The notes beneath the pieces were generated by a model. That model was given only the letters and a program-made list of their open reading frames with translations, searched no databases and was not told the origin of the DNA. The position numbers and the translations under genes are program-made. This document shows, in pieces, positions 2,498 through 31,709 of a stretch of DNA of 35,164 nucleotides. The stretch lies in NCBI GenBank assembly GCA_027625355.1, contig JAQBWI010000002.1:1-35164 (forward strand). Direction: 5' to 3'. The stretch comes from Pseudomonadota bacterium. Its GTDB lineage: Bacteria > Pseudomonadota > Alphaproteobacteria > HIMB59 > GCA-002718135. Numbering within the stretch: the first letter of the stretch is position 1; each line of letters opens with the position of its first letter.

Positions 2498-3571
2498 TTA
2501 TTTAATTACATTAAGACCGTCAGTTAAATTTATTTTACCAATATTCTTTGCCTTGTTAAATTCCTTAATTCTATCAAATACATCAACATTAATTTGCCTG
2601 TAAATATCAAGTAGATCAATTAACACCCAGTTTTCTCTTATTAGTCCATTTTCAACTCTCCAAAAATCTAAACTACGCATCTCTAAAGGTTGTTTTGATG
2701 GCGCTATGCCCATCCATCCATCATTAGTTATTGTTAATCGCATATTAGGCCAGCCTGTTTCACAAACATAATTTCCTTCATGAATCCAATGCGTCTGTAA
2801 ATCTTCCATACCTTCAAAAGCTAATTTTTCATTTGAGGAACCTCCTTTACGATCCGGCATAGCTCGTAAAAAAGGAATTTGATGCCAATGCCTAAAACCA
2901 GCTATGCCTCTTCCTGTTCCTATTCCTGCTGGTCCATACCAATTAACCTGAGGGTGCCAGTATTTTTCTAATTCCATAATTTTTGGATCGGGATTACTTG
3001 GATGTTTAGATAGACCATGAAGCATATCAATTACATGGTCTAAATTTTTTTTTCCATCACCAGTAATTGTTAAGCCATCACCCGTCATAGGAGACGGTGT
3101 GCATAAAAAAGCACCTAATTGAGGAACCATGGGCCAAGAATTTGCTTGCATCATTAATTCTGGTAAATCCCATATAGATTGCATTTCAGTAATTTGATTA
3201 TCTTCAATTTGAAAAAACTCATGATACCGCATATGAATTAAATTACCAGTTGGCGGGATATCTAAAAAAGGCTTAAGAAAAGTACCCATATAATTACCCA
3301 TGGTACCTATCCACTCTTTTCCTTCAGGTGTTGTTCCCGCCATAACAATCATATCTCTTCTTTCTAGATCAGGGATACTTTCAATTAAGGGCAATAAACA
3401 CTTAGATAATAAATTATCTAATCCATTAAAGGTGCCAAATGGATGACAAAAATGAATTAAAGAATTGTTAGAAAAATATTTTTTTAGAGAATTATTAATT
3501 GAGGCTTGATTGCAAGTTTGAAGAGTCAATTGATAATCAACAAAATATTTTTTTAATTCTTCTGAATTCAT
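2498..3571 (-). CDS. Tandem NTF2/SnoaL-like (predicted ester-cyclase type) protein, function unknown (paralogue A)
   Basis: 357-aa ORF. It shares PDLERRD, TGDG, YWHPxxxWYGPxGIGTxRGxxGF..HHQxPF and LIRENWVxID....I.VDVFD.IK blocks with the ORF at 13426-14517. Its ATG overlaps the SDR stop (TAATG at 3573-3569). It is the last gene of the transporter operon. Confidence 0.6.
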   Translation of the reverse strand: MNSEELKKYFVDYQLTLQTCNQASINNSLKKYFSNNSLIHFCHPFGTFNGLDNLLSKCLLPLIESIPDLERRDMIVMAGTTPEGKEWIGTMGNYMGTFLKPFLDIPPTGNLIHMRYHEFFQIEDNQITEMQSIWDLPELMMQANSWPMVPQLGAFLCTPSPMTGDGLTITGDGKKNLDHVIDMLHGLSKHPSNPDPKIMELEKYWHPQVNWYGPAGIGTGRGIAGFRHWHQIPFLRAMPDRKGGSSNEKLAFEGMEDLQTHWIHEGNYVCETGWPNMRLTITNDGWMGIAPSKQPLEMRSLDFWRVENGLIRENWVLIDLLDIYRQINVDVFDRIKEFNKAKNIGKINLTDGLNVIK

Positions 3572-4338
3572 TATTTTGCTGTCCAGCCACCATCTATAAC
3601 AAGTGATGATCCAGTCATCATAGATGAAGCATTAGAAGCTAAATAGACAACGGAAGTAGCAATATCACTATCTGTTGCTAGTCGCCCTAGTGGAATATTA
3701 TTTAACATTGCTTGTTTAAATTTTTTATCTTTAAAGAAATTTTTTACTAAAGGTGTTTCAACAAATGTTGGGCAGATTGAATTTACTCTTATATTTTTTT
3801 TAGCCAAGTCTAATGCCATACCTCGAGTTAAACCCTCAATACCAAATTTAGTCATATTATAGACACTTCGATTAGGTGCTCCCACCTTACCAAGCTGAGA
3901 GGATATATTTATTATAGATCCACCAATAAATTTTCTATTTTTTGATTTTAACATCACTTTTGCGGCCATTTGAGCAACATGAAAAGCAGCCTTGATGTTT
4001 AAATCTACTACATAATCCATATCTTCTTTTTTAATTTTAGTAAAATGCTCTGGTCGATTGGTTCCAGCATTATTAACTAAAATATCAAGCGAGTTTATTT
4101 TTTTAAAAACTGACTTTACTTCTTCAACATTAGAAACATCACATTCAAAGACAGTACATTTTCTTTTCAATTTATTGATATGCTTTTTAACCTTATTTAA
4201 ATCATTAAGTGTTCGACTTAAAATAATCAGATCTGCTCCTGCTTCAGCAAGAGCAATAGCTGAAGCCTTTCCAATTCCCTTCCCTGCTCCCGTTACTAAG
4301 GCGGTTTTGTTTTTGAATTCAAATTTTTGTAAATACAT
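3571..4338 (-). CDS. Short-chain dehydrogenase/reductase (classical SDR)
   Basis: 255 aa. It has the cofactor motif TGAGKGIGKA, NNAG, and the catalytic Ser...YNMTK (YxxxK). Confidence 0.85.
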   Translation of the reverse strand: MYLQKFEFKNKTALVTGAGKGIGKASAIALAEAGADLIILSRTLNDLNKVKKHINKLKRKCTVFECDVSNVEEVKSVFKKINSLDILVNNAGTNRPEHFTKIKKEDMDYVVDLNIKAAFHVAQMAAKVMLKSKNRKFIGGSIINISSQLGKVGAPNRSVYNMTKFGIEGLTRGMALDLAKKNIRVNSICPTFVETPLVKNFFKDKKFKQAMLNNIPLGRLATDSDIATSVVYLASNASSMMTGSSLVIDGGWTAK

Positions 4339-4347
4339 TTCTTCTAT

Positions 4348-4363
4348 ATCAATATTTATTGAT
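4348..4363. promoter_or_regulatory. Palindrome ATCAATA-TT-TATTGAT in the HAD-SDR intercistronic gap
   Basis: 7-bp perfect arms seen directly, 10 nt upstream of the SDR ATG (4338). The half-site TATTGAT resembles the TATTGAAT half-sites of the two operator modules. The role is uncertain. Confidence 0.25.
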
Positions 4364-4373
4364 AACTTTGCAA

Positions 4374-5030
4374 CTAATTAAAAATAGAAGTGTCTAATTT
4401 CAATATTATTTTAGAACAAAAATCAAAATTATCTTCTTCATGAAATAATCCAGGAAAAGCAATACATGAAACTTTTGCATTATGTGCAGACAAGGCGCTT
4501 TCTCTTGAATCTTCAATCGCAATACATTCATTAGGTTCAAGGTTGAGTCTTTTAATTGCCTCGATGTAAATATCAGAATGAGGTTTAGGATTTTGTACCA
4601 TCATATTATTACCAACAAAATCAAAATCCTCTTCGATAAAATAATTTTTTAATGCCAAAAAAACCGAGTTAACATTTTCTTTTGTTGTAGATGTTACAAA
4701 TCCTAACTTTATTTGATTGTTTTTTGCATATTCAATAACATCAATAACGCCTTCCCTTGGCATGAGTTTTTCAGTCATTAATTTTTTATTAAAAATGTGT
4801 GTTTTTCTCTCTCTAATTTTTTGCGCTTCAACTGTTGTGTTATTTTTTTCTGCAAAATCCTCTATTCTTTTTGTGCCACCCGATTGTTTAAGCAATAATC
4901 TATAATCTTCATGATCCCAATACCAATCTAGTCCAGCTTCTTTAAAAGCTTCATTGAAAGATTCTCTTTGTAATTCTGATGTTTCTATAATGGTTCCAAT
5001 TGAACCAAATAATAATGATTTATAGGTCAT
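4374..5030 (-). CDS. CbbY-like HAD-superfamily protein with degenerate motif I (FGSIGT instead of FDxDGT)
   Basis: 218 aa. The N-terminus LLFGSIGTIIETSELQRESFNEAFKEAGLDWYWDHEDYRLLLKQSGGTKRI parallels CbbY (FDVDGTLAETE...AFN..F...G.DW.WD...Y..LL...GGKERI). Motif II (VTSTT), motif III (PKPHSDIY) and motif IV (IEDS) are present, but both motif-I Asp residues are replaced. Confidence 0.7.
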   Translation of the reverse strand: MTYKSLLFGSIGTIIETSELQRESFNEAFKEAGLDWYWDHEDYRLLLKQSGGTKRIEDFAEKNNTTVEAQKIRERKTHIFNKKLMTEKLMPREGVIDVIEYAKNNQIKLGFVTSTTKENVNSVFLALKNYFIEEDFDFVGNNMMVQNPKPHSDIYIEAIKRLNLEPNECIAIEDSRESALSAHNAKVSCIAFPGLFHEEDNFDFCSKIILKLDTSIFN

Positions 5031-5031
5031 A

Positions 5032-6165
5032 TCATCCTTTCACAGATCCTTGGGTTAATCCAGATACTATTTGTTTTTGAAAAAACATAACCAAAATAAA
5101 TAAAGGTAATGTTATTGATGCGGCAGCAGCAATAGACTCTACTAAATCTGTCATTGTTGTTTCCATATTAAAGTATTGCATAATAGCAGGTACCATAGTT
5201 TGTGATTGACCATCAAGTAACAGAGCACATACAAGGTAATCATTATAAGCTAATAAAAAAGAAAAAAGTCCTGTAGTAATAACTCCGGGCCACATTAAAG
5301 GCATAATTATCATCCAGAAGGCTTGAAAAGAATTACATCCATCTATCTGAGCTGCGTCATCTAGGTCTTGAGGAATATTCATAAAAAATGATCTTAACAT
5401 CCAAATCGTAAAAGGCTGGTTAATTGCAACCAACAGAATAATCACAGCTATTTTTTTTCCATAAAGGCCATAATCTATAAACAATTCTAAATAACCAGTG
5501 ACTAAAACTGAATGAGGAAGAGCTCTAAATACTAATGCTGCAACTAACAACCAAAACGCTATCATAGTATTACTTCTTGATAAAGCGTAGCCTGCGAGAG
5601 TACCTACTGTTAATGAAATTGTCACGACACCTAAGGTAACAAAAGCTGTATTTAAAAATTGTTTATAAAATTCATTTTCTGCCCAAACAGCAATAAAATG
5701 CTTAGTAGTAAAGCCTATCAAAGGTTTAGAAAGTATTTTTAAAAAAGGGACATACTCAAAAAAATTATTTAGAAAATTTGCAATATGAGTATTTAAAAAT
5801 AAAAAAAGTGCTAAAAATAAAGCGATGAAAATTAAGATCAATAATAAAAATGATATTAACTTGTTATTAGTTAGATTATTAATTTTCAAAAAATAATTTT
5901 CACGACTTTTGAAAAATTTAAAATAAATATAAATTGATAAACACAAAAACATTAAATTTATGAATGATAGTCCACCTACCTGCTTTAATGTATTAGGGCC
6001 AATAATTACATTCAAGGGATTTGCAGCAAAAGAGTCAACTGGTAACTTAATCGACATTATTAAGACCCACAAAAGAGGAAAAAGTGCTATAAAAGTCCAT
6101 AACATGATGGAAATACCAACTATCACTTTTAAGGTTAACGACAAATTAAACAATTTGCTTTCCAT
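5032..6165 (-). CDS. ABC transporter permease (CUT1 sugar-type, MalG/UgpE-like) with an extra hydrophobic insertion
   Basis: 377 aa, multi-TM. It has the EAA-loop DAAQIDGCNSFQAFWMIIMPL. About 100 extra residues lie between TM1 and the conserved core and contain two hydrophobic helices (LSFINLMFLCLSIYIYFKFF, LISFLLLILIFIALFLALFLFL). Its ATG overlaps the stop of the upstream permease (6167-6163). Confidence 0.85.
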   Translation of the reverse strand: MESKLFNLSLTLKVIVGISIMLWTFIALFPLLWVLIMSIKLPVDSFAANPLNVIIGPNTLKQVGGLSFINLMFLCLSIYIYFKFFKSRENYFLKINNLTNNKLISFLLLILIFIALFLALFLFLNTHIANFLNNFFEYVPFLKILSKPLIGFTTKHFIAVWAENEFYKQFLNTAFVTLGVVTISLTVGTLAGYALSRSNTMIAFWLLVAALVFRALPHSVLVTGYLELFIDYGLYGKKIAVIILLVAINQPFTIWMLRSFFMNIPQDLDDAAQIDGCNSFQAFWMIIMPLMWPGVITTGLFSFLLAYNDYLVCALLLDGQSQTMVPAIMQYFNMETTMTDLVESIAAAASITLPLFILVMFFQKQIVSGLTQGSVKG

Positions 6166-7184
6166 TAATTCCTCTTCTCTTTCTGTTCTTTGAAAACTCT
6201 TCGTAAAACAGGAATTAAAATTATTACAATTCCAATCATAGTAAGCATTGATGTTGCTGATGCCCTTCCAATATATCTACTTCCTGAATCATCTAATCTT
6301 AAAAAATCATATGTCATCCATTGAAGTGAGTTTAAAAACCCCTCTGCACTAAACCCAACTATTTCATCAAATACTCTATAAGCATCCATCAAATGAATAA
6401 GTGTAACAAAAACAATGAGAGGCATAATGTGAGGAATAACTATGTATCTTAATCTCTGAAATCGATTGGCGCCGTCAACAAAAGCTGCTTCTATTCTATC
6501 TTTATCAACAGTTTGTAAAGCCGCGTAAAATATTACAAATGCAAAAGGAGTTGTGTGCCAAATTTTATAAAACAAAACCAAAAGCTCAATTGACCAAGCT
6601 TTGGCAAAAACTGAAATATCTTTTTCTAAAATATATTCCAAAAACGAAGTTATAATACCATCACCAATAAATAACCATTTAATTGATAAAGAACCAATCA
6701 CAGGGGTAATTATGAAGGGTAATAATGTTATAAAAATTACAGGCCCTTTTAATCTATTTACCAAGTTGTTTACACATAATGCTAAACACAAACCAAAAAT
6801 AAGAACAAAAGGTAATGTTATAAATGTAAAAGTTAGTGTAAATCTTAAAGCTTTATAGAAATCAATTGATTGTATTGCAGACCAAGAATAACCATTATTT
6901 TGGATTATCGAATTTAAATCTACAAATTTTAAAATATTTTTATAATTTTCCCAACCAACCCATATATTAATTTTAGACCTATTTCCTTTTTCATCTAGAA
7001 CAGGCACTTTCAGAATTTCTGTTTTGCATCCAAACGGATCACACTTTTCTCTTTCTACAATCTCTAAAATATCTTGTTTGAAATGAAAACTTTGAAAAAA
7101 GACTAAAAATAATGGAATGGCAATAAAAAAAACCATCATTATAAATGATGGCATCGTAAAAATTAAAAAAGTTTTTTTATTCAT
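6165..7184 (-). CDS. ABC transporter permease (CUT1 sugar-type, MalF/UgpA-like)
   Basis: 339 aa, multi-TM. It has the EAA-loop EAAFVDGANRFQRLRYIVIPHIMP and a periplasmic loop after TM1 containing CDPFGC. Confidence 0.85.
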   Translation of the reverse strand: MNKKTFLIFTMPSFIMMVFFIAIPLFLVFFQSFHFKQDILEIVEREKCDPFGCKTEILKVPVLDEKGNRSKINIWVGWENYKNILKFVDLNSIIQNNGYSWSAIQSIDFYKALRFTLTFTFITLPFVLIFGLCLALCVNNLVNRLKGPVIFITLLPFIITPVIGSLSIKWLFIGDGIITSFLEYILEKDISVFAKAWSIELLVLFYKIWHTTPFAFVIFYAALQTVDKDRIEAAFVDGANRFQRLRYIVIPHIMPLIVFVTLIHLMDAYRVFDEIVGFSAEGFLNSLQWMTYDFLRLDDSGSRYIGRASATSMLTMIGIVIILIPVLRRVFKEQKEKRN

Positions 7185-7189
7185 ACAAA

Positions 7190-7226
7190 AATTACCCTCT
7201 ACTGTAATTTAGAGTAGAGGGTAATT
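7190..7226 (-). terminator. Intercistronic stem-loop (14-bp stem, 9-nt loop) plus U-run between the SBP and permease genes; attenuator / RNA-stabiliser type
   Basis: On the minus-strand RNA, AAUUACCCUCUACU (7226-7213) pairs perfectly with AGUAGAGGGUAAUU (7203-7190). It is followed by UUUGU and then the permease AUG (7184). The only SD-like element for the permease (GAGGG) lies inside the 3' arm. Confidence 0.6.
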
Positions 7227-7232
7227 AAATTT

Positions 7233-8447
7233 TTATAAAAGACCTTTTTCTGTTGCAGCAGTAATATAATCTGCCTCTATTTTTTCGAGTGTAGCTTTAG
7301 CTGTTGCTGCACCAGTTAAATAGTCAGGAAGCGTATTACCTAAAACTCCATGCAAAGTACTCATTTTTGCTGAAGCAGGATAAGGAGCAGCTCCTCCTTT
7401 TGCAGTCATAACAGCTCCAATGTTTGAAGGTGCTGGGTCAAAAGCACTTGAAATCCACGGTGCAGCTTCAGGACTTTCACCTAAATTTGAAGGATCTAAA
7501 CCAACCATAGCTAATTTAAATGCAGCTTCCGCTTCTTCATCAGAAATATTTTTTGCAATAACAACTCCATCCCACCAAAGAGTAGAAGCTGGTTTTCCTC
7601 CTCTTATCGTAGTAGGTGCTGATGCAAATTTAACTAATCCGACAACGCTTGATTCTTCTGCGTTATCCATTGCACCTGCTCTAGAAGCCCATAAATTTGC
7701 CATTGCAATTTTACCTTGTTGGAATTGTTGTTGAACGTACGTTGAATCAGAAGTCAAATATTCTGGATCCATATACTCAGTAAGCTTTTTCAACATTTTA
7801 AGTGTTTCGTAACCATTTGCATTATTTACAGCAGGCATATTTTCATCAAAGAAAGTATCAGCATAACCTAAATACATGTTTATAAACTCTTCACCTAAAT
7901 TCCAACCAGCTGCAAATGTACCTCCCAAAGGATAATCTACTACCCCAGCATTTTGTATAATTTTAGCAGCTTTGATCACTTCGTCGTAAGTTGTTGGTAC
8001 ATCAATACCTAGATCATTGAGAATATCTTCTCTATAAAATAAATGTTGAGCATTGGTCATCATGGCAATTGCCATGACCTGTCCATTAATTGTAACTTTT
8101 TGGTTGTCTTGTAAAGCACCACCATGCTTAGCAATCAAATCATCAAGCGGTCTAGTTAATCCAGCATCAAGAACTGAAACATTTGTAGATGCAGATACGC
8201 CTGCTAGAGCATACTGTGATGGATTACTATCCAGTGCTGCTACAATTTTATCTTTGTAATCTTGATCAAGTGTTGGTGTGAAATTACCACATTCTTCCAT
8301 AGCACTTGTAACAACTTTCCAAGCGTCAAATCCAGCACTTAGTGAAGTTAATGGAACATCGTTTTTATTTTCACAAGCTTTTGCAGAGCTAAAACCAATT
8401 AAGGCAAAAGATGCAATAACTGAAAATAATATAAATAATTTTTTCAT
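7233..8447 (-). CDS. Periplasmic substrate-binding protein of a CUT1-type ABC importer
   Basis: 404 aa. It has an N-terminal signal peptide MKKLFILFSVIASFALIGFSSAKA, an extracellular solute-binding family-1-like length and composition, and a strong SD (AGAGGAA) before the ATG. It is the first gene of the transporter operon. Confidence 0.85.
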   Translation of the reverse strand: MKKLFILFSVIASFALIGFSSAKACENKNDVPLTSLSAGFDAWKVVTSAMEECGNFTPTLDQDYKDKIVAALDSNPSQYALAGVSASTNVSVLDAGLTRPLDDLIAKHGGALQDNQKVTINGQVMAIAMMTNAQHLFYREDILNDLGIDVPTTYDEVIKAAKIIQNAGVVDYPLGGTFAAGWNLGEEFINMYLGYADTFFDENMPAVNNANGYETLKMLKKLTEYMDPEYLTSDSTYVQQQFQQGKIAMANLWASRAGAMDNAEESSVVGLVKFASAPTTIRGGKPASTLWWDGVVIAKNISDEEAEAAFKLAMVGLDPSNLGESPEAAPWISSAFDPAPSNIGAVMTAKGGAAPYPASAKMSTLHGVLGNTLPDYLTGAATAKATLEKIEADYITAATEKGLL

Positions 8448-8493
8448 ATGAATTCCTCTATTTATTTAAATATACAATTGATATTACATAAGA

Positions 8494-8534
8494 ATTCAAT
8501 AAAATGAATAATTATTCAATATATTGAATAAAAT
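8494..8534. promoter_or_regulatory. Operator module 1: nested palindromes including the perfect 20-bp TTATTCAATATATTGAATAA (8512-8531)
   Basis: Read directly from the sequence. There is a perfect 20-bp palindrome at 8512-8531, a perfect 14-bp palindrome TGAATAATTATTCA at 8505-8518, and an imperfect ATTCAATAAAATGAAT at 8494-8509. The module sits in the 99-bp divergent gap between the SBP operon and the LacI-family gene. Confidence 0.65.
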
Positions 8535-8546
8535 ATTGGTGGAAAA

Positions 8547-9539
8547 ATGAAAAAAAATGCAACTTCTCAAGAAGTAGCGAAATTAGCTGGAGTTTCTCAA
8601 TCTGCTGTTTCAAGGTGTTTCACAAAAGGTGCCAGTATTTCTAGCAGGACAAAATTAAGAGTTATCGAGGCTGCTAAAAAATTAGGTTACAAACCTCAGT
8701 CCTATTCTACGAGTACTTCTAATTTAGATGAAGGAGGATTGGTCGGAGTAATATTGCCATATATTACTAACAGATATTACCCTGAAGTTTTAATAGAATT
8801 ACATGAGGCACTAAGACATTCAGGATACAGGGTCTTACTAATCACTACAGATGATGGTGAAGAGCTTGATGACAACTTGATACAGCCTTATCTCAAAGAA
8901 AAACTCATTGCTATAGTTTCTGCTACAAAGCCAACAGATTCTTTCGTTGAAAATTGTTTAAATAAGCAGATTCAACTCATTGCCTTTAACAGAAATTGGA
9001 AAATACCAACTTTAAGTTCTGTAACCTGTGATCATAGATACGGAGGGGAGGCGGCTGCTGAACATTTCATTAATAACGGACACACTAAGATTGGAATTAT
9101 AGAAGGCCCAACAGGATCATTTGTGAGTAGCGAGAGATGTAGAGGTTTTAAAAATCCTATAAAAAATTCTAAAAGAATAAAATTATTTTCTGAAAAAGGA
9201 AATTTTACATATGAAGGAGGTTTTGAATCAACAAAAAAACTTTTGGAAAATGATATCACAGCAGTATTTTGTGCTGATGATATAATGGCATTTGGATGTC
9301 TGGATTGCATAAAGCAGCACACAAACTTAAGCGTCCCAAAGCAAATAGAAATTATTGGTTATGATGATATATCAACAGCAAATTGGCACTCCTATAATTT
9401 AACTACAGTAAGACAACCTATTCGAAAAATGTCAAAACTTATTACTCAGATTATTGATGACAATTTAAAAGACCCTGAATTTGAGCCTATTAATTATGTG
9501 ATACAAGGCAAATTTGTTTATCGCAAGACAACAAGATAG
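8547..9539 (+). CDS. LacI-family transcriptional regulator
   Basis: 330 aa. It has the N-terminal HTH ATSQEVAKLAGVSQSAVSRCF followed by a periplasmic-binding-protein-like sugar-binding fold (GYDD near the C-terminus). Confidence 0.9.
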   Translation: MKKNATSQEVAKLAGVSQSAVSRCFTKGASISSRTKLRVIEAAKKLGYKPQSYSTSTSNLDEGGLVGVILPYITNRYYPEVLIELHEALRHSGYRVLLITTDDGEELDDNLIQPYLKEKLIAIVSATKPTDSFVENCLNKQIQLIAFNRNWKIPTLSSVTCDHRYGGEAAAEHFINNGHTKIGIIEGPTGSFVSSERCRGFKNPIKNSKRIKLFSEKGNFTYEGGFESTKKLLENDITAVFCADDIMAFGCLDCIKQHTNLSVPKQIEIIGYDDISTANWHSYNLTTVRQPIRKMSKLITQIIDDNLKDPEFEPINYVIQGKFVYRKTTR

Positions 9540-9542
9540 AAA

Positions 9543-10235
9543 TTGTCTAAAATAATTTTGATTCCAGGATATATGTGTAACAAAACCATTTGGGATGCAC
9601 AAATACCTATTCTAAAAAAAAAATATAGTGTTTCTATTTCTTCTCTTAGGAACATTGCTACAGTAGATGATGCAGTACAAAAAATCATAAACAAAAATAC
9701 AAAAAAATTTTCCGTTATAGGTTTTTCAATGGGTGGATTTATTGCAATAAAATTAGCTATCGAGTATCCTGAAATATTAGATAAATTAGTTTTAATAGGT
9801 ACTAATGCAAGACATATTTCACAAAAAAGAAAGTTGCTTTTAGAAAAGTCATTAACAACTTTAAATAAAAATAACTTTGCAAAATTATTTTATCAAAAAA
9901 ACTATAGTTCCTATTTTTCTGATAAAGATTTGAAAAATACATCATACCAAAATACTGTTTACTCAATGGCTAAACAATTGGGGTATAAAACTTTTTTAAA
10001 TCAAACTAATTTAATTGTAAATAGACCCAATCAACTAACAAAGCTAAATAAGATTGTATCAAAAACTCTTATTATTCGTGGCAAAAACGATAAACTATCC
10101 TCAAATATTATGAACGATGAATTAAATAAGAAAATAAAATATTCAATGTATACAGAAATTAAAAATTCTTCTCATTTTGTAATGATAGAGAAGCCAAAAA
10201 TTTTTAATAAAATTGTTTCTAATTTTTTATCTTAA
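9543..10235 (+). CDS. Small alpha/beta-fold serine hydrolase (esterase/lactonase-type)
   Basis: 230 aa. It has the nucleophile elbow GFSMGG, an acid residue in GKNDKL, and His in SSHFVMIEKP. The start is TTG, 4 nt after the LacI stop. The first beta-strand (IILIPGY) precedes the first in-frame ATG, so the TTG start is needed. Confidence 0.7.
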   Translation: MSKIILIPGYMCNKTIWDAQIPILKKKYSVSISSLRNIATVDDAVQKIINKNTKKFSVIGFSMGGFIAIKLAIEYPEILDKLVLIGTNARHISQKRKLLLEKSLTTLNKNNFAKLFYQKNYSSYFSDKDLKNTSYQNTVYSMAKQLGYKTFLNQTNLIVNRPNQLTKLNKIVSKTLIIRGKNDKLSSNIMNDELNKKIKYSMYTEIKNSSHFVMIEKPKIFNKIVSNFLS

Positions 10236-10236
10236 A

Positions 10237-11367
10237 TCAAATCGTTTTAGATGCTATTTGAGTACCCTTAACTAACGAAACTAGTTTCTCATAACAAATT
10301 TTTTCATCAACTTTTCCAAATCCAGCAAAAGTACTAAAACCACAATCTGTACCAGCCATAATTTGCTCCTTTGGTACAAAAGTAGAAAATTGTTTTAACC
10401 GATCAGCAACAACTTCGGGGTGTTCAACAAAATTTGAAGTTGAGTCAATAACACCAGGCACAATGACTTTATCTTGTGGCAATTTAATCTTTTCAAAAAC
10501 TTTCCATTCATGTGCATGTCTTGGATTTGAAGACTCAATTAATAAATATTTACTTTTTGCCTTAAGTACAATTGGTAAGATTTTTTCCAAACCAATATCA
10601 AAAGTATGAGGTCCCTCATAATTTCCCCAGCAGATATGCATTCTAATTTTGTCATGTGAAACTAATGCCAATGAATGATTAAGAGCTTCAATTTGTTTTT
10701 CAGCCCGCAGCAAAAAACTTTCTTCATCTAATTCTTTAAAACTCATATGCCTTGCTAATGCTAAATCTGGACAATCAACTTGCAAGAATAAATTATTAGA
10801 AGTAATTTGTTGATATTCTTCTGACATAATCACACTAAGCTTATTTAGATACTCGTCATCATTGTTATAAAATTTATTAGGTAAAAAAACATTTATGACT
10901 CCTGGTGAAGCGGCATTCATAAAGCCCTTAGTATGATTATTAGCACTTAAAGCGGAAGATAAATTATTTATATCTTTTAAAAGATCATCATTATTTTTAA
11001 TTGAGAGTTCCCCAGTACAACACGGTCGGGTATAAGTAGGAGTTCCACCACTTTTAGCAATCTTATCTTTATATTCAGGAAATGCATCTAAATCAGCTGG
11101 TGCTCTTCTTTCGCTTTCACCAGAAAAACCATTAATTCTATCTTTAACATATGTAGCATAACTAATTTTACTCATTTCACCATCACTGATAAAATCAATA
11201 CCTATATCAAGTTGTTTTTTGACAACCTCACTTACATTTTTTTTTACAACATTATCAAATTCATTTTCACTAAAACTATCTCCCTTATCTTTTGCAAAAA
11301 GTAATTCTGATAAAGTTTTAGAGCGAGGTAAACTTCCTACATGTGTTGTTAATATTTTCGTGTTCAA
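10237..11367 (-). CDS. Stand-alone MetE catalytic-domain homologue (cobalamin-independent methionine synthase-like, COG0620 type)
   Basis: 376 aa. It has the N-terminal THVGSLPR and Zn-ligand-like positions MHICWGN (H-x-C), LIESSN (E) and GTDCGF (C). The start is TTG. It is the last gene of the bicupin operon. Confidence 0.7.
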   Translation of the reverse strand: MNTKILTTHVGSLPRSKTLSELLFAKDKGDSFSENEFDNVVKKNVSEVVKKQLDIGIDFISDGEMSKISYATYVKDRINGFSGESERRAPADLDAFPEYKDKIAKSGGTPTYTRPCCTGELSIKNNDDLLKDINNLSSALSANNHTKGFMNAASPGVINVFLPNKFYNNDDEYLNKLSVIMSEEYQQITSNNLFLQVDCPDLALARHMSFKELDEESFLLRAEKQIEALNHSLALVSHDKIRMHICWGNYEGPHTFDIGLEKILPIVLKAKSKYLLIESSNPRHAHEWKVFEKIKLPQDKVIVPGVIDSTSNFVEHPEVVADRLKQFSTFVPKEQIMAGTDCGFSTFAGFGKVDEKICYEKLVSLVKGTQIASKTI

Positions 11368-11374
11368 TCTTTAG

Positions 11375-12346
11375 CTATCCTGTTTTCATCAGAATTTGTT
11401 TCCAAATTTCAGTTTCATCAAATAAAATCCATTCATTTTTAATGCCTCGTGGTCCAAATTCAACATGAGATATAGCCATAATATGAACTTCTGCTTGACT
11501 AGGCACTCCAAAATATCCCGAACCAGAATGAACACCATTAAGCGACCATCTGATAGCTGCCTTTCTGTACTGATTTGGTTCATCTAAATAACTCACATGA
11601 TCAACTGAAAATGTTGCATCAGGAAATGATGAAAATAAAGAAGTCCAAAAAGTTTTTACTTCTTCAACTCCGTAAGCTTTTAATCCTCCTGGTAATTCTT
11701 GATTTATTGCCCTATCATATTTTTTATCAACTATATTGATATCTTTATTAAATATAGATTTTAAAACTTCTGCATATTCATAACCTGAGTTTTTTTCAGG
11801 TAAATTTAATTGTGAATATTTTAAATCCAAAGGTGTGTTTTTGTTAAAAGGAACTGCACAATTTTCAATACCCCCTTGATTATCAATTATTTGTTTTGCA
11901 TATTTTTTTGGATCTAAATTAAGTTGTCTTACAATTGCACCCTGATCTCTAACAAGCCATTCATCATACACTTGATTATCCTTGCATGCACAATCTGCAA
12001 TTACTCTATAAATAAGTTTTGCTCCTGTTGCTTTTCCATAAACTCCATCTTTCAAGTGAGTTGCTCTAGTTAAAATTCGATGCGATGATAAATACCCATC
12101 GTTTTCATTACCTATCCATATGACATCTTCACCTAAGAGTTGACGGTCAGGGAATTCTTCTAAAGTTGCATAAGTTGCTTTTACAACTACATCAGGTCCA
12201 TATACAACTCCAGCAGGGGACCTAACTGGAATTCCTTTTGCGTAATATTCTCTTATTGACTCAACATCCTTGTCTTCCCAAATCTGATAAGTAATTTTTA
12301 AAATATAATCAGGTAGATCTCTAAATTTTTGATCAAAACCCTTCAT
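11375..12346 (-). CDS. Tandem NTF2/SnoaL-like (predicted ester-cyclase) protein, function unknown (paralogue B)
   Basis: 323 aa with two SnoaL-like halves (ITYQIWEDKDVESIREYY...FPDRQLLGEDVI and VKTFWTSLFSSFPDATFSVDHV). It is more distant from paralogues A and C. Confidence 0.6.
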   Translation of the reverse strand: MKGFDQKFRDLPDYILKITYQIWEDKDVESIREYYAKGIPVRSPAGVVYGPDVVVKATYATLEEFPDRQLLGEDVIWIGNENDGYLSSHRILTRATHLKDGVYGKATGAKLIYRVIADCACKDNQVYDEWLVRDQGAIVRQLNLDPKKYAKQIIDNQGGIENCAVPFNKNTPLDLKYSQLNLPEKNSGYEYAEVLKSIFNKDINIVDKKYDRAINQELPGGLKAYGVEEVKTFWTSLFSSFPDATFSVDHVSYLDEPNQYRKAAIRWSLNGVHSGSGYFGVPSQAEVHIMAISHVEFGPRGIKNEWILFDETEIWKQILMKTG

Positions 12347-12349
12347 CTT

Positions 12350-13321
12350 TTAATTTTTTTGGCGCACTATATAAATGCTACCTTTATCGCCACTTATATT
12401 TTTAAGGCTTCTTGTAGAGTTTTTTGGAGAGGAGAACGCATCTCTAGGTCCAATTAACACTTTTTTATCATTACATGTAATTTCCCATTCTCCATCCAAA
12501 CATAAATAAACTTCAGATTTTGATGAGGTGTAAGGATGAATATGTGCATTACTACCTTCAAGTAGAGTAAGCCCAAATCCAGTTTTATGACTAATATATG
12601 GTTTAAACTCTTTATTATGAATAGTAAAATCATCTAAATAATTTAAAATAGAATTTGAATTATAATGTTCGTCATCTAGAAAATAATTTTTTTGATCTGC
12701 ATATCGAATTACAAATTTTTCAATTTCTTCAGAAGTATAATGATCAAATTGTGTTAATTCATTATCTGTGATTGGCTCTATAGCTTTTTTACCAACAGGT
12801 ATTTGATTTTTTTCTAAATCAATAAGAGAGTTATCACTTAAAAGAACCATTCCAGTTTCTTTCGCTTTTTTTAACAATGAAGGAGTCCATGTAATTACTC
12901 CCGGATCATTTTCACCTAAAACTACAAACATTAATGCTTGTTGATCACTGACATTTTGGAATCCTCTAAACATATTAGTAGGAAATGAAGCAACATCTCC
13001 TTTATGTAGAATAACCTCACCCTCTTTTCCATCTGATCCCCAATAAAAACGCCACGAACCAGAAAAAATAATAAATACCTCAGCTGTTGTATGACTATGA
13101 AGCCCAGAACCATTCATAGGTGCAGCACTTACTGCCCCAATATTAAACCCATGTTCCTCGGCAATTTTTACATTTTGTTTAGAATCTTCACTTACCCCAG
13201 GTCCCACTAATGAGTAATTCAATCTATCCTGATGTCCTTTTAACTTACCCTCAACAAATGGAACTTTACTTGGTATTAACTCATTAAATCTTGCTACACG
13301 TGTTTCTAAATCTGTTGACAT
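12350..13321 (-). CDS. Bicupin protein (two cupin barrels), function unknown
   Basis: 323 aa. Domain 1 has HSHTTAEVFIIFSG (HxH-x3-E-x6-G). Domain 2 has HIHPYTSSKSEVYLCLDG (HxH-x7-E-x6-G). Both motif-2 regions read P-x-N-x2-R-x3-N (PTNMFRGFQN, PKNSTRSLKN). Confidence 0.7.
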   Translation of the reverse strand: MSTDLETRVARFNELIPSKVPFVEGKLKGHQDRLNYSLVGPGVSEDSKQNVKIAEEHGFNIGAVSAAPMNGSGLHSHTTAEVFIIFSGSWRFYWGSDGKEGEVILHKGDVASFPTNMFRGFQNVSDQQALMFVVLGENDPGVITWTPSLLKKAKETGMVLLSDNSLIDLEKNQIPVGKKAIEPITDNELTQFDHYTSEEIEKFVIRYADQKNYFLDDEHYNSNSILNYLDDFTIHNKEFKPYISHKTGFGLTLLEGSNAHIHPYTSSKSEVYLCLDGEWEITCNDKKVLIGPRDAFSSPKNSTRSLKNISGDKGSIYIVRQKN

Positions 13322-13340: not shown

Positions 13341-13392
13341 ATTCATTTTTATTGAATAATATTCAAAATATTGAATAAATCAATTCAATATT
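13341..13392. promoter_or_regulatory. Operator module 2: array of TTGAATA/TATTCAA half-sites collinear with module 1
   Basis: TTGAATA-A-TATTCAA is a perfect 15-bp palindrome (13352-13366). TATTCAAAATATTGAATA (13360-13377) differs from the module-1 core by one base. AATATTGAAT-N6-ATTCAATATT (13367-13392) has 10-bp arms. The array lies in the 104-bp divergent gap between the bicupin operon and the NTF2/HisD-like operon. Confidence 0.65.
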
Positions 13393-13425
13393 ATCTCGAC
13401 ATGTGAGTAACTAAATTGATAAAAT

Positions 13426-14517
13426 ATGACAAAAATCGAAAATTTTAAAACCAGCATCCAAGCTAATGATGATGCTGAAATTATAAATATCGAACCTAAA
13501 AGAAACTTAGAGAATAAAAAAAAAATTAGGATATTTTTAAAAAATATTGCTGAATCAAATCTACAAAACTTAGAGCAAAATTTAAGAAATGCATATCATG
13601 AAAATGCAGAAGTGCGAGCATTTCATCCAATAAATGACATAAAGGGGATTGATGAAATAAAAGATAAATTATGGACACCTCTTTTAAAATCTTTTCCAGA
13701 TTTAGAGAGAAGAGATAATTTAATAATTGGCGGAAGTTTTCAAAATAAAATTTTTGTTTCTATTGTTTCTCATTTAACTGGTACATTCAAAAACTCATGG
13801 TTAAATGTGCCTTCCCATAATAAAACAATTCATCTGAGAATTTGTGAAGCTCACGAAATTCAGGATCAAAAAATTATTCGCTCCCATATCCTAATTGACA
13901 CATTAGATTTCATTCGTCAGGCAGGCTTCTGGCCAATAAAAAAATCATTAGGTGTAGAGGGAGTGTGGCCTGGTCCAATTACAGGGGATGGAACAACATT
14001 TGAAAATCATGATCAAGAATTATCAAAACTTTCAATGGATCAATCACTTACGATGCAGAGAAGTTTAAATGTTAAACCAGAAACAGATCCTGGTTCAACA
14101 CATGAATATATTAGAGATAAATTACTAAATCACCCCCAAAAAGAATATTGGCATCCTAAAATGATGTGGTACGGACCTTGCGGTATTGGTACAGCAAGAG
14201 GATTGGAAGGATTTGTTGATCATCATCAATTACCTTTCAGACTTACATTCAAAGAGAGAGATTACTGGAAAATTGGTCATTATATTGAAATAGCTGATGG
14301 TAATTATTCAATGACATCAGGTTGGCATAGTATTGAGTGTATACATGGTTCAAGTGAGTGGCTTGGATATGAAGCAACAAATAAATCAGTAACAATGAGA
14401 GTTATGGATTTCTATTTACATCATGAAGGTTTGATAAGAGAAAATTGGGTCCCAATAGACATAGCTCATATCTTAAATCAAATAGGTATAGATGTTTTTG
14501 ATCTAATAAAAAAATAA
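13426..14517 (+). CDS. Tandem NTF2/SnoaL-like protein, function unknown (paralogue C)
   Basis: 363 aa. It is a clear paralogue of 2498-3571, sharing PDLERRD, ITGDG, YWHPKMMWYGPCGIGTARGLEGF..HHQLPF and LIRENWVPID...IGIDVFDLIK. Confidence 0.6.
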   Translation: MTKIENFKTSIQANDDAEIINIEPKRNLENKKKIRIFLKNIAESNLQNLEQNLRNAYHENAEVRAFHPINDIKGIDEIKDKLWTPLLKSFPDLERRDNLIIGGSFQNKIFVSIVSHLTGTFKNSWLNVPSHNKTIHLRICEAHEIQDQKIIRSHILIDTLDFIRQAGFWPIKKSLGVEGVWPGPITGDGTTFENHDQELSKLSMDQSLTMQRSLNVKPETDPGSTHEYIRDKLLNHPQKEYWHPKMMWYGPCGIGTARGLEGFVDHHQLPFRLTFKERDYWKIGHYIEIADGNYSMTSGWHSIECIHGSSEWLGYEATNKSVTMRVMDFYLHHEGLIRENWVPIDIAHILNQIGIDVFDLIKK

Positions 14518-14578
14518 CAGATTTAATTGATGTTATTAGATAATTATATATACGTAGAAAATTAATTTAGAGGAAAAA

Positions 14579-15865
14579 ATGACAATTTCATATATCAAAA
14601 AAGCAAATAAAACTGCCTCTTCTGATGAGGTTGAAACGAGACAACGAGTTCAAGAAGTTCTCAATGAAATAGAATCTAAAAGAGACAAAGGTATTAAAGA
14701 AATTTCTCGCAAGTTTGATAAATATGAAGGTGATGTTATTGTTACCCAAGAAAAAATTGAAGAAGTAATAAAATCATTAGATCAAAAAGTAAAAGATGAT
14801 GTGCAGTTCTCCTATGATAGAGTTCGTAGTTTTGCAGAGCATCAACTAAAACATTTGAATAATGATTTTGAAGTTGAATTATCTCCAGGTCTTTTTGCTG
14901 GTCAAAAGTTAATACCTGTTAATAGTGTTGGTTGTTATGTTCCTGGTGGAAGATATAATAATATTGCCTCCGCTATAATGAGTATTACTACAGCAAAAGT
15001 TGCAGGTGTCAAAAATGTTATTGCTGCTAGTCCTCCAAAAGATGAAAATGGTGCTAATCGTATTATTATTTACACTGCAAATTTATGTGGAGCTGATGTC
15101 ATTATGAACTGTGGTGGTATTGGAGCGATTGGTGCTTTTGCTTATGGATGTTTTGGTAATCCAGAAGTTGATATGATTGTTGGTCCAGGAAATCAATACG
15201 TAGCAGAGGCAAAGAGAATTTTATATGGAAAAGTTGGAATTGATTTATTTGCAGGGCCAACAGAAATTGGCATTATTGCAGATCATACTGCTGATAAAGA
15301 AATGATTGCTGTTGATCTTGTTGGTCAAGCAGAGCACGGTCCAAATTCTCCAGCTTGGCTTTATACAACTGACAAAGAATTGTGTGATTATGTCATGAAG
15401 CGAGTTCCAGAATTAATCGCTGAACTACCTGAAACATCAAGAAATAACGCTGATGCTGCTTGGCGTGATTACGGTGAAGTTATTCTATGCGATACGAATG
15501 AAGAATTATGTGAGATCAGTGATAACTATGCTCCTGAACATTTAGAAGTTCAAGCTGAAAACTTAGATTGGTGGCTTGATAAACTAAAAAATTATGGATC
15601 ATTATTTTTAGGTGAAGAAACAACTGTTGCCTATGGTGATAAATGCTCTGGTACAAATCATATACTACCCACAAAAGGTGCTGCTAAATATACAGGCGGT
15701 TTATTTGTAGGTAAGTTTATTAAAACTGTTACTTTTCAACGCATGACCAAAGAATCAAACAAGGAAGTGGGCGCAGCCGCAGCAAGAATTTCAAGATTGG
15801 AAGGAATGGAAGCACATGCGCGAACAGGTGATGCTCGTTTAAGAAAATATGGTTTTCAAAATTAG
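14579..15865 (+). CDS. Histidinol-dehydrogenase-family NAD-dependent 4-electron alcohol dehydrogenase (catabolic paralogue, possibly HpsN-like)
   Basis: 428 aa with HisD-family blocks VPGG, GPGNQYVAEAK, GQAEHGPNS, APEHLEV and SGTNHILPT. It has a GAGGA SD. The context is not a his operon. Confidence 0.8.
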   Translation: MTISYIKKANKTASSDEVETRQRVQEVLNEIESKRDKGIKEISRKFDKYEGDVIVTQEKIEEVIKSLDQKVKDDVQFSYDRVRSFAEHQLKHLNNDFEVELSPGLFAGQKLIPVNSVGCYVPGGRYNNIASAIMSITTAKVAGVKNVIAASPPKDENGANRIIIYTANLCGADVIMNCGGIGAIGAFAYGCFGNPEVDMIVGPGNQYVAEAKRILYGKVGIDLFAGPTEIGIIADHTADKEMIAVDLVGQAEHGPNSPAWLYTTDKELCDYVMKRVPELIAELPETSRNNADAAWRDYGEVILCDTNEELCEISDNYAPEHLEVQAENLDWWLDKLKNYGSLFLGEETTVAYGDKCSGTNHILPTKGAAKYTGGLFVGKFIKTVTFQRMTKESNKEVGAAAARISRLEGMEAHARTGDARLRKYGFQN

Positions 15866-17736
15866 ATAATTTTCTTTGATTGTAAAAAATTAATAATCTG
15901 ATCAGTTAACTCTTCCGCATTACTTGATGTAGTATCTAAAATAAGATCAGGATTTTCTGGCTCTTCATATAAAGAGTCTATACCTGTAAAGTTTTTTAAT
16001 TCACCTGCTCTTGCTTTTTTATAAAGTCCTTTTGGATCTCTCTTTTCACATTCTTCTAATGGTGTGTTTACAAAAATTTCAAAAAACTCATCTGAAGATA
16101 ATAAATCTCTAGCCATTTGTCTTTCTGATTTGAAAGGTGAAATAAATGAAACCAATGTTATTAATCCAGCATCAGCCATTAGCTTTGATACTTCTGCAAC
16201 ACGACGAATATTTTCTACCCTATCAGGGTCTGTGAAACCTAAATCCTTATTCAATCCATGACGAACGTTATCACCATCTAATAAATAAGTTCTCTTGCCT
16301 ATAGTGTGTAATTTTTGTTCTAAAATATTAGCAATTGTTGATTTACCAGAACCTGATAATCCGGTAAACCACACAACACATGGCTTTTGAGAATTTAACT
16401 CAGATCGAGTTTTCTTATTGATTGACATTTTGTGCCAAGAAATATTGCTAGATCGACGAAGAGCGTGATCAATCATGCCAACCCCAATTGTTTTATTATT
16501 ATAAGGATCAATTATAACAAAGCTTCCCAACTTTTGATTGTTAGAGTACGAACTAATAGCATGCGTTTTATTAATGGCGACTTTACAATAAGCAATATCA
16601 TTTAAATTTAGTTTTTTAGAGGCCACTTCTTCGTAAGAATTAACATTTATACTGTGCACTAAATCAGTTATTTTTCCATTAATGTAAGCGTTATTAAAAC
16701 GAAAAATATAATTTCTCTCAGGCAACATTGGCTCTTGATCCATCCAAATTAAATGGGAGGCAAACTGATCTGCCTTTATTATCTGATCATTTTTTTTTGA
16801 AAGAATAACATCTCCTCGTGAAATATCTAATTCGTCACTTAAAGTTAATGTAATTGCTTGTCCGGAGTATGCTTCACTTAATTCTCCTTTAGGTCCGTAG
16901 ATATTTTTCACTGAAGTTAGCGTATTACTGGATGCAGTGGTTATTAAATCACCTCTTGCAATTTTACCATCAGCTATCGTACCTGAATAACCTCTGAAAT
17001 TTGCACTTGATCTATTTACCCATTGGACTGGGAAACTTAATTCATTGTTTTGGCTTGAATCCAAAACATCGACTTTTTCTAATGTTTCAATTAATGTTAA
17101 TCCCTTATACCATTTCGTATTTTCAAAATTTGAAAATACATTATCCCCTTTTAAGGCTGACAATGGAATAAAATTTATAGATGTAAAAGTAAAATTTTTA
17201 ATTAATTCCTTATACTCATCAACAATTCTCTCAAAAATATTTTCTTTATAATTAACTAGATCCATCTTATTTATTGCAACTACAATATGTTTAATGCCCA
17301 AAAGATTAACAATAAAACTATGTCTTTTTGTTTGCTCTAATAATCCTTTTTCTGCATCTATTAATATTATCGCCACATCAGAATTTGAGGCTCCCGTTGC
17401 CATATTCCGTGTATATTGTTCGTGACCAGGTGTATCGGCAATGATAAATTTACAATTTGATGTTTCAAAATAACGATACGCTACATCTATAGTAATTCCC
17501 TGTTCCCGCTCTGCTTGTAAGCCATCAACAAGTAAAGCTAGATCAATTTCTTTACCTTGAGTTCCATATTTTTCACTTTCTATTTTTGTCTGATCTATCT
17601 GATCTAGAAAAATATTTTGAGAATCAAATAGCAATCTTCCTAATAAAGTAGATTTTCCATCATCAACCGAACCACAGGTTAAAATTTTAACTTGTTTTTT
17701 TTTATTTTGAGCTTGAAAGAATTTATTTAAATCCAC
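15862..17736 (-). CDS. cysNC: Bifunctional sulfate adenylyltransferase subunit 1 / adenylylsulfate (APS) kinase
   Basis: 624 aa. The GTPase motifs are GSVDDGKST, DTPGHEQY and NKMD. The C-terminal APS kinase has the P-loop GLSGSGKST and LDGDNVRHGLN. The GTG start overlaps the cysD stop by 1 nt. Confidence 0.9.
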   Translation of the reverse strand: MDLNKFFQAQNKKKQVKILTCGSVDDGKSTLLGRLLFDSQNIFLDQIDQTKIESEKYGTQGKEIDLALLVDGLQAEREQGITIDVAYRYFETSNCKFIIADTPGHEQYTRNMATGASNSDVAIILIDAEKGLLEQTKRHSFIVNLLGIKHIVVAINKMDLVNYKENIFERIVDEYKELIKNFTFTSINFIPLSALKGDNVFSNFENTKWYKGLTLIETLEKVDVLDSSQNNELSFPVQWVNRSSANFRGYSGTIADGKIARGDLITTASSNTLTSVKNIYGPKGELSEAYSGQAITLTLSDELDISRGDVILSKKNDQIIKADQFASHLIWMDQEPMLPERNYIFRFNNAYINGKITDLVHSINVNSYEEVASKKLNLNDIAYCKVAINKTHAISSYSNNQKLGSFVIIDPYNNKTIGVGMIDHALRRSSNISWHKMSINKKTRSELNSQKPCVVWFTGLSGSGKSTIANILEQKLHTIGKRTYLLDGDNVRHGLNKDLGFTDPDRVENIRRVAEVSKLMADAGLITLVSFISPFKSERQMARDLLSSDEFFEIFVNTPLEECEKRDPKGLYKKARAGELKNFTGIDSLYEEPENPDLILDTTSSNAEELTDQIINFLQSKKII

Positions 17737-18635: not shown

Positions 18636-18641
18636 AGCTCT

Positions 18642-22727: not shown

Positions 22728-22747
22728 AAAGTTAAATTTTATCCAAG

Positions 22748-22776
22748 GTGACAAAGTAATTATTATTGATTATAAT
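22748..22776 (+). promoter_or_regulatory. Candidate sigma-70 promoter (GTGACA-N17-TATAAT) for the CMD-family gene
   Basis: GTGACA lies at 22748-22753 and TATAAT at 22771-22776, with a 17-nt spacer. A GGGGA SD and the ATG at 22810 follow. AT-rich DNA makes chance hexamers likely. Confidence 0.35.
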
Positions 22777-22809
22777 TCACGTAAAATAGAAGGGGAAAGA
22801 AGAGAAAAA

Positions 22810-23187: not shown

Positions 23188-23194
23188 AATATTT

Positions 23195-27534: not shown

Positions 27535-27597
27535 CTTCAAATCTCCAATTAATATATTATGTTAATTATTTAGACTTATTTATTTAAATTCAAATTT

Positions 27598-31645: not shown

Positions 31646-31709
31646 TAAAACTCCTATAAAGTCTTTTTTTAATGACAATTGACTATCAGTGATGCATAAT
31701 TAAGTCAAT

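Follow-up and report, generated by a model that had tools for sequence, protein, structure and literature searches.

Which protein reads the nested palindromes that separate an ABC transporter operon from a LacI-family regulator gene in a SAR11-like genome? Bacteria of the SAR11 group, which are extremely abundant in the ocean, encode very few transcription factors. In the DNA analysed here (contig JAQBWI010000002.1 of assembly GCA_027625355.1, positions 1 to 35,164; hereafter the window, meaning this whole stretch of 35,164 nt), a substrate-binding protein (SBP) gene (7233–8447, minus strand) and a gene for a LacI/GalR-family protein (8547–9539, plus strand) diverge from a 99-bp gap. The block at 8494–8531 within this gap reads directly as ATTCAATAAAATGAATAATTATTCAATATATTGAATAA, and an initial annotation had judged it to fit an autoregulated LacI-family operator serving both promoters. 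Comparative analysis bears this proposal out: the conservation of the block and its restriction to the gaps of one gene cluster suggest that it is probably the operator array of the adjacent repressor.

The palindromes reported in the initial annotation all lie where it placed them. A perfect 20-bp palindrome, TTATTCAATATATTGAATAA, occupies 8512–8531 with its centre 25.5 nt upstream of the LacI ATG (about 25 nt had been given), a perfect 14-bp palindrome, TGAATAATTATTCA, occupies 8505–8518, and an imperfect dyad with 5-bp arms, ATTCAATAAAATGAAT, occupies 8494–8509; the four alternating half-sites and the 99-bp divergent gap are likewise present. These elements compose a four-half-site array at 8494–8529, made up of H1 (ATTCAA, 8494–8499), H2 (ATGAAT, 8504–8509), H3 (ATTCAA, 8514–8519) and H4 (TTGAAT, 8524–8529). 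Their TKCA/TGMA cores are spaced at exactly 10 bp, which puts every one of them on the same helical face, and because adjacent cores are always about 10 bp apart the array holds three overlapping dyads. H1 and H2 form site 1 (8494–8509), the weaker 16-mer. H3 and H4 form site 2, the 16-bp core (8514–8529) of the 20-mer; this site starts 20 bp from the start of site 1 and has the CytR-like geometry ATKCAA-N4-TTGMAT. The third dyad is a junction-centred register of H2 and H3, ATGAATAATTATTCAA (8504–8519), which encloses the 14-mer and has the geometry TTGMAT-N4-ATKCAA. LacI operators are even palindromes of 16–22 bp, and both the 16-bp cores and the perfect 20-mer are of this kind; one site in each array of a second gap, described below, measures 17 bp. 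The likely functional unit is the four-half-site array with its 10-bp core period, rather than the lone 20-mer.

Palindromes come cheaply in this window because its G+C content is only about 30%. Perfect palindromes whose arms reach 10 bp or more arise in about 14% of whole-window Markov-1 simulations and in about 2% for the 2.2-kb intergenic pool, while 14-bp palindromes are common, with 10 observed and 5.5 expected under the same model. The 20-mer is weakly unusual and the 14-mer is not unusual; palindromes by themselves are weak evidence. The ordered set of four cores is another matter. The pattern TKCA-N6-TGMA-N6-TKCA-N6-TGMA is matched exactly once in the window, where 0.07 matches would be expected even if one mismatch were tolerated, and a variant with N7 and N5 spacers also has one exact match (13342–13375), against 0.06 expected. 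Both matches sit between divergent genes, in two intergenic gaps of one and the same cluster.

The second of these gaps separates a bicupin gene (12350–13321, minus strand) from a double SnoaL-like gene (13426–14517, plus strand). Its array (13341–13376) begins 19 nt from the bicupin ATG and consists of H1 (ATTCAT, 13341–13346), H2 (TTGAAT, 13352–13357), H3 (ATTCAA, 13361–13366) and H4 (TTGAAT, 13371–13376). H2 is shifted by +1, which gives core spacings of 11, 9 and 10 bp and is the sole difference from the layout of the first array. A motif search found site 2 of this array, ATTCAAAATATTGAAT (13361–13376), and the junction, TTGAATAATATTCAA (13352–13366), is a perfect 15-bp odd palindrome. 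Two further conserved stretches lie in the same gap. Directly to the right of the array, AAATCAATT (13377–13385) is invariant in all seven distinct gaps of this type. Its minus-strand reading, TTGATT, could serve as a -35 element for the bicupin operon, in which case H3 and H4 would fall within the spacer of that promoter. Closer to the SnoaL gene, TGTGAGTAACT (13403–13413, 12–25 nt upstream of the ATG) is kept in most clades (the window, L001, L002, L012, L032 and L035) while its surroundings vary, and could represent a leader or ribosome-binding-site context, or another site.

We then scored the window with a matrix of 27 sites from which the window itself and its closest relative, L001, had been left out. 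The top ranks fall at 8514 (20.8 bits), 13361 (20.1 bits) and 8494 (17.4 bits), followed by a next best score of 10.5 bits; the highest score in simulated windows averages 13.7 ± 2.7 bits. Matches at 27588 (10.5 bits) and at 8970 inside the LacI gene (9.1 bits) fall under this null maximum and were rejected as further sites. Rather than being scattered through intergenic DNA, which would have spoken against an operator, the motif recurs within the window solely in the second divergent gap of the cluster. Across 268 kb of related loci, matches of at least 14 bits are confined to the cluster gaps with two exceptions, one site within the LacI gene of clade B (L002 and its relatives) and one at a gene start. 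Outside SAR11-like DNA the array pattern is non-specific: in a metagenome-wide scan that required fixed core positions, 11 of the 80 loci among the matches listed belong to this cluster, the others being rplP coding sequence, ARG boxes and tandem repeats.

A motif-like 16-mer also occurs in the LacI coding sequence about 420 nt past the ATG, as ATTCAACTCATTGCCT in the window (8970–8985, 9.1 bits) and as the perfect ATTCAACTTATTGCAT in clade B (L002, 10409–10424, 16.9 bits). In clade B it could act as an auxiliary operator, or it could result from constraint on the coding sequence. Only three palindromes in the window have arms of at least 9 bp, one of which, the perfect 18-mer TCATGGCAATTGCCATGA (8060–8077), lies within the coding sequence of the SBP. 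Another perfect 18-bp palindrome, TAATTCTAATTAGAATTA (30756–30773), lies at the 3′ end of a class-IV aminotransferase gene (30761–31678, minus strand) and borders a 653-bp gap (30108–30760) free of open reading frames (ORFs).

The arrays are conserved together with the regulator. An orthologue scan that took one genome per species returned 30 SAR11-like loci with a LacI orthologue at 70–95% identity, almost all of them from genomes that were assembled from single cells or metagenomes and carry the label uncultured Alphaproteobacteria; close homologues in a protein search were named Pelagibacteraceae. Synteny around both gaps is maintained, even where the SBP is a 38%-identical paralogue, and both gaps carry the four cores at fixed spacing within flanks that cannot be aligned (10/10 distinct SBP–LacI gaps and 7/7 distinct bicupin–SnoaL gaps). 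The dyad is thus conserved upstream of orthologous LacI/SBP pairs, a check that the initial annotation had proposed. In some genomes, on contigs reached through more distant homologues, a third divergent gap between two SnoaL genes contains the same two 16-mers 20 bp apart (three gaps). Together with seven distinct arrays from 11 further loci of the metagenome scan, this makes at least 27 distinct arrays, which lie upstream of the regulator and its probable targets.

The consensus of these arrays is (T)ATKCAA-N4-TTGMAT(A), present twice with starts 20 bp apart, a spacing constant in all of them. H3 and H4 are the best-conserved half-sites and their spacing is invariant in 27/27 arrays, with a flanking T preceding H3 in 20/20 arrays and a flanking A following H4 in 18/20. 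The half-site whose position shifts is H2. The 4 bp joining the two 16-mers are A or T throughout (100% in all arrays). The centres of the 16-mers are free to vary. The TATA centre noted in the initial annotation holds for the 20-mer of the window but is not conserved, as other arrays have CAGT, GCAT, TGTA or AAAC. The CG centre typical of LacI-family sites is found in neither register, the 16-mers having TATA, TAAA, TGTA, CAGT, GCAT, AAAC and others, and the junction WWWW.

The same loci vary in other respects. In L002, L012, L027 and their clades, the transporter beside the regulator is a different paralogue (SBP 38%, permeases 41–55% identical), and array and regulator are kept. A separate palindrome, GTGTGAAA(A/T)TCACA(T), of the form TGTGA-N3-TCACA, lies about 25 nt from the SBP start in L032 (~7920–7935) and in the same gap of L033 and L034, while the SBP–LacI gap of clade B has the inverted repeat TACGTATAAAAAAC-AATTTTTTTACGCGTA instead; neither element occurs in the window. 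L022 and L027 have SAR11-like gene content and G+C yet sit in bins labelled 'Methanobacteriota archaeon' and 'Gammaproteobacteria', labels that are probably binning errors.

The regulator encoded beside the first array (330 residues) combines a LacI-type helix-turn-helix (HTH), AGVSQSAVSRCF (PF00356, 45 bits), with a periplasmic-binding-protein-like core matched by PF13377, PF00532 and PF13407. Its relatives in the Protein Data Bank (PDB) are RbsR, CcpA and PurR (E = 1e-32 to 1e-25), and it scores under every NCBIfam equivalog cut-off. In canonical LacI/GalR proteins, a linker of the form YxPxxxAxxL folds into a hinge helix, the leucine of which inserts at the central CG. This 'YPAL' motif, found in 111 of 149 best library representatives, is absent here: the linker (residues 50–63, PQSYSTSTSNLDEG) reads YKPQSYSTST, and the hinge leucine of RbsR and CcpA aligns to a threonine. 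Among the SAR11 orthologues, residues 5–49 of the DNA-binding domain are invariant and linker residues 50–63 are hypervariable. As judged from these alignments, the hinge-helix motif is lost in the SAR11 regulator, with a hypervariable linker in its place. We propose that the loss of the hinge accounts for a dyad centre that is neither conserved nor CG, and that the hypervariable linker accounts for the 1-bp tolerance in the spacing of one half-site.

Distant relatives of the regulator provide a second line of comparison. The SAR11 family is isolated, its next relatives in a search of the whole protein library being at most 38% identical, and a subset of them, from Hyphomicrobiales and GC-rich contigs (loci L159–L164), has the recognition helix AGVSQSAVSR[TAS]F in common. 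The contigs of eight relatives, 30–37% identical to the window protein, were read. Six have intergenic DNA beside the gene, and all six carry palindromes of the same half-site: GTGCATAGCTATGCAA in the Brucella relative, TTGCATAGCTATTCAA/T in Mesorhizobium, two copies of TTGCATAGCAATGCAA in Shinella, TTGCATATGCTATGCAA in Bradyrhizobium, TTGCAAAACTATGCAA on GC-rich contig L164, and TTGCATGCGAATTCAA, with a canonical CG centre, in the divergent SnoaL–SBP gap of GC-rich contig L163. Because relatives with the same helix carry the same half-site beside their own genes, the half-site is tied to this LacI subfamily, and in these comparisons it accompanies such DNA-binding domains in genomes that differ greatly. 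The relatives resemble the SAR11 system in their recognition helix, in the half-site TATKCAA and in sites placed beside the regulator and sugar-type ABC transporters. They differ in that their palindromes (TTGCAT-N4/5-ATKCAA, 16–17 bp) are single or loosely tandem with AGCT or CG centres, and in that their linker is conserved (Y[RQ]PSxIPRIM or YQPNAIARSM). On L163 (4494–4671, 66% GC) the regulator stands beside a double-SnoaL gene, an SBP_bac_1 transporter and genes with B12-binding domains, and two predicted CG-centred operators are spaced 24 bp apart; in function, this locus may correspond to the SAR11 cluster.

On the operator reading, the repressor without its effector would sit on the array; we prefer a stoichiometry of two adjacent dimers, one on H1+H2 and the other on H3+H4. 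Occupancy of the first array would silence the regulator's own gene and the transporter operon, and the second array would likewise control the bicupin/SnoaL/MetE-like and SnoaL/HisD-like operons, so that RNA polymerase would be blocked at all four transcription units. Release of the repressor would depend on a small-molecule effector, probably one imported through the ABC transporter. In the first gap, 17 nt lie between the array and the LacI ATG and 46 nt, ribosome-binding site included, between the array and the SBP ATG; with so little space here and in front of the bicupin gene, the array must overlap both divergent promoters in each gap.

Several points weigh against this interpretation. 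Its support is comparative, with binding and expression both predicted. The loci are phylogenetically related, so their counts overstate independence, and 11 of them (seven distinct arrays) come from a pattern that forces the core positions. Promoter hexamers at 9–10 of 12 matches are no more frequent in the gaps than in shuffles. Metatranscriptome contigs end at 8446–8458 on the SBP side and start at 8541/8542 on the LacI side, none crossing the block; this is consistent with the operator reading, but contig ends are imprecise as transcript starts. The AlphaFold2 (AF2) model agrees with a lost hinge in showing no linker helix, with a predicted local distance difference test (pLDDT) score below 50 at residues 51–61, but its mean pLDDT is mediocre (65.9) and such disorder proves little, as LacI-family hinge helices fold only on DNA. 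Finally, the distant relatives use the H2+H3 geometry, which leaves H1 and H4 partnerless and the dimer pairing ambiguous, and the junction register fits the ARG-box consensus of ArgR at 17/18 positions.

The most serious competitor concerns this pairing and keeps the regulator itself; the initial annotation, in suggesting cooperative or alternative-register binding, aptly named the choice at issue. One dimer may bind the junction palindrome H2+H3 (8504–8519), with H1 and H4 as auxiliary half-sites that recruit further dimers or tune affinity, an arrangement to which we assign a substantial if minority chance. Its orientation is that of the six relatives with adjacent intergenic DNA (6/6, mostly N4; for example TTGCATAGCTATGCAA and TTGCATGCGAATTCAA), and pairing with the linkers at the dyad centre is the norm for LacI-family geometry. 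The 14-bp palindrome, which the initial annotation correctly located, is accordingly not merely secondary, since its geometry is that of the regulator's distant relatives. Also on its side are the junction N4, made up of A/T alone (100%) in all arrays, and the second-gap junction, which in every clade forms a perfect odd palindrome. However, H4 and its flank are conserved like H3 and better than H2, and would be left without a partner; H3 and H4 keep their spacing in every array while H2 moves, producing an N3 junction in the second gap; and the TA flanks of the half-sites account for the A/T junction. A stoichiometry of two dimers for four half-sites would also be simpler. We therefore lean towards pairing of H1 with H2 and of H3 with H4, because it uses all four half-sites, the H3–H4 spacing is invariant, and H3 and H4 are the best conserved and have symmetric flanks.

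Readings that dispense with the LacI protein fare considerably worse. The A/T-rich hexamers could be overlapping -35 and -10 elements (TTGAAT, TATATT, TAAAAT) of two divergent promoters, or sites of nucleoid or global proteins, leaving the LacI protein without a specific role. Sigma-70-like hexamers can indeed be fitted in the block, TTGAAT resembles TTGACA, and the gaps are so short that promoters must be here. Yet promoter-like matches are no commoner than in shuffles, and strict dyads with a 10-bp period recur in four copies in three divergent gaps and, bar the two exceptions noted above, nowhere else in 268 kb. The half-site also occurs in GC-rich genomes that encode a DNA-binding domain of the same type. 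We consider this explanation unlikely.

A little less probable still is that the junction palindrome is an ARG box of an ArgR/AhrC-type arginine repressor. The segment 8503–8520, AATGAATAATTATTCAAT, is an 18-bp box that fits the published consensus TNTGAATWWWWATTCANW (PMC5291005), and Bacillus and Streptomyces consensi have the same K/M degeneracy. The pattern scan also returned such sequences between arginine-repressor-like and argC-like ORFs (as read from translations) on GC-rich contigs. ARG boxes share with the array the core TGMAT-WWWW-ATKCA and a periodicity of about 20 bp. ArgR operators, though, are paired 18-bp boxes 2–3 bp apart, while each region here holds a single box with half-boxes as neighbours and no complete pair. 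The second-gap junction is odd, N3 in all clades, H1 and H4 are left unexplained, and the cluster contains no arginine genes, its gene content being unrelated to arginine. Nor is the window enriched in ARG-box cores (4 found, 3.06 expected), and the half-sites of the GC-rich LacI relatives have AGCT or GCGA centres and are not ARG boxes. ArgR is not known from SAR11, and we judge the resemblance to be a coincidence.

An RNA hairpin (leader or attenuator) or DNA cruciform is scarcely credible. The RNA fold of 8490–8546 (-8.1 kcal/mol, z = -2.0) speaks for it but is weak; the sequence matches neither Rfam nor tRNA models, the stems are all A-U save one G-C pair each, spacers vary freely, metatranscriptome contigs leave the block uncovered, and the variable K/M positions of the arms do not covary (11/20 within site 2 and 9/20 for H1–H4, counted by hand over 20 arrays), which argues for protein recognition rather than an RNA stem.

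The genes around the arrays define the probable regulon. The operon leaving the first gap on the minus strand (2498–8447) encodes the CUT1-type SBP (7233–8447), two permeases (6165–7184 and 5032–6165), a HAD hydrolase (4374–5030), an SDR protein (3571–4338) and a double SnoaL-like protein (2498–3571). On the opposite side, an alpha/beta-hydrolase gene (9543–10235, plus strand) is probably co-transcribed with the regulator, since it starts 4 nt after the LacI stop. The second gap is flanked by a minus-strand operon (10237–13321) of MetE-like (10237–11367), double SnoaL-like (11375–12346) and bicupin (12350–13321) genes, and by a plus-strand operon (13426–15865) of a double SnoaL-like gene (13426–14517) and a gene for a histidinol-dehydrogenase-family protein (14579–15865). 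The cluster contains no other regulator gene; a MarR-family gene and a two-component pair are found 18 kb away. Against PDB sequences, the bicupin and one SnoaL protein gave no match and the SBP matched solely distant sugar or sulfoquinovosyl-glycerol binders; a literature search returned no paper on the SAR11 regulator or its cluster.

Several neighbours deserve mention in their own right. The histidinol-dehydrogenase-family gene after the second array exists in two versions, about 46% identical, at the same position in different clades (window, 14579–15865; L002, 15966–17285; L015, 7910–9232), and the version in the window exceeds the TIGR00069 hisD cut-off. Directly adjoining the cluster (15862–19433) are CysNC, a fused sulfate adenylyltransferase and adenosine 5′-phosphosulfate (APS) kinase, CysD and a CysQ-like phosphatase, which suggests formation and turnover of 3′-phosphoadenosine 5′-phosphosulfate (PAPS) and a possible tie to sulfated or sulfonated substrates. 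Two other gaps, 22728–23194 (467 bp) and 34171–34504 (334 bp), contain no ORF of at least 150 residues, no tRNA and no Rfam match.

A predicted repressor, together with an operator and a regulon that comprises two or three pairs of divergent genes, offers a handle on regulated carbon use in SAR11. It draws attention to a cluster of a CUT1 ABC transporter, HAD, SDR, three double-SnoaL, bicupin, MetE-like and HisD-like proteins, for which the repressor, used as a sensor, could reveal the substrate. For the LacI/GalR field, the system presents a natural case in which hinge loss is coupled with loss of the CG centre and with four half-sites, making the role of the hinge in operator geometry testable. 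A more far-reaching idea, which we advance tentatively and hold to be less likely than not, is that a SAR11-specific LacI/GalR lineage without a hinge helix reads four alternating half-sites through freely tethered DNA-binding domains. Its dimer may then pair back to back (ATKCAA-N4-TTGMAT), opposite to its hinge-bearing relatives, in a CytR-like mode independent of CRP, and would form one of the few dedicated transcriptional switches of a streamlined SAR11 genome, controlling an uptake and catabolic pathway with double-SnoaL, bicupin and MetE-like enzymes.

Known members of the family help to place this system, which fits their norms in several respects. Autoregulation is reported for 72% of LacI-family factors (Ravcheev 2014, PMC4052901), and tandem sites at helical-turn spacing are known and have been read as cooperative binding (PMC4052901). 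The closest counterparts in layout are the RafR and ScrR regulogs (PMC4052901), in which an autoregulated regulator diverges from a transporter operon and a small local regulon is served by even palindromes of 16–20 bp, with two sites about two turns apart. The present spacing is 20 bp, against their 21–22 bp, and the sites abut, making a third dyad at the junction. The centre is also unlike theirs, being non-CG and unconserved, whereas the consensus centre is CG in 1173 of 1303 LacI-family factors, different in 49 and degenerate in 29 (PMC4052901), and the protein is without a conserved hinge.

In this last respect the nearest precedent is Escherichia coli CytR, a LacI/GalR member that likewise lacks the YPAL motif and whose flexible linker is credited for relaxed half-site spacing (PMC3505978). 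CytR half-sites have the core TGCAA/TTGCA, and the optimal CytR site, AATGCAAC-GC-GTTGCATT or ATGCAA-N4-TTGCAT (PMC3454398), shares core and spacing with ATKCAA-N4-TTGMAT. CytR tolerates different half-site spacings and orientations. Between the SAR11 gaps the spacing varies from N6 to N7, which may or may not reflect flexible binding. The SAR11 regulator is nevertheless no CytR orthologue: identity is 26%, the window protein scores 138 bits against an NCBIfam CytR cut-off of 436, the recognition helix is QSAVSR where CytR has TATVSR, and the regulon, with its ABC transporter, SnoaL, bicupin and MetE-like genes, is not nucleoside-related. A search for CRP sites (TGTGA-N6-TCACA, at most two mismatches) returned none in either gap and a chance number in the window (18 against 18.1), and the TGTGA...TCACA palindromes of L032–L034, spaced by N3 and not N6, were rejected as such sites. 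With CRP sites thus missing beside the arrays, nothing points to anti-activation that depends on CRP. Taken together, these comparisons suggest a conventional, local LacI-family repressor–operator system that is unusual in its lost hinge, its non-conserved centre and its array of four half-sites.

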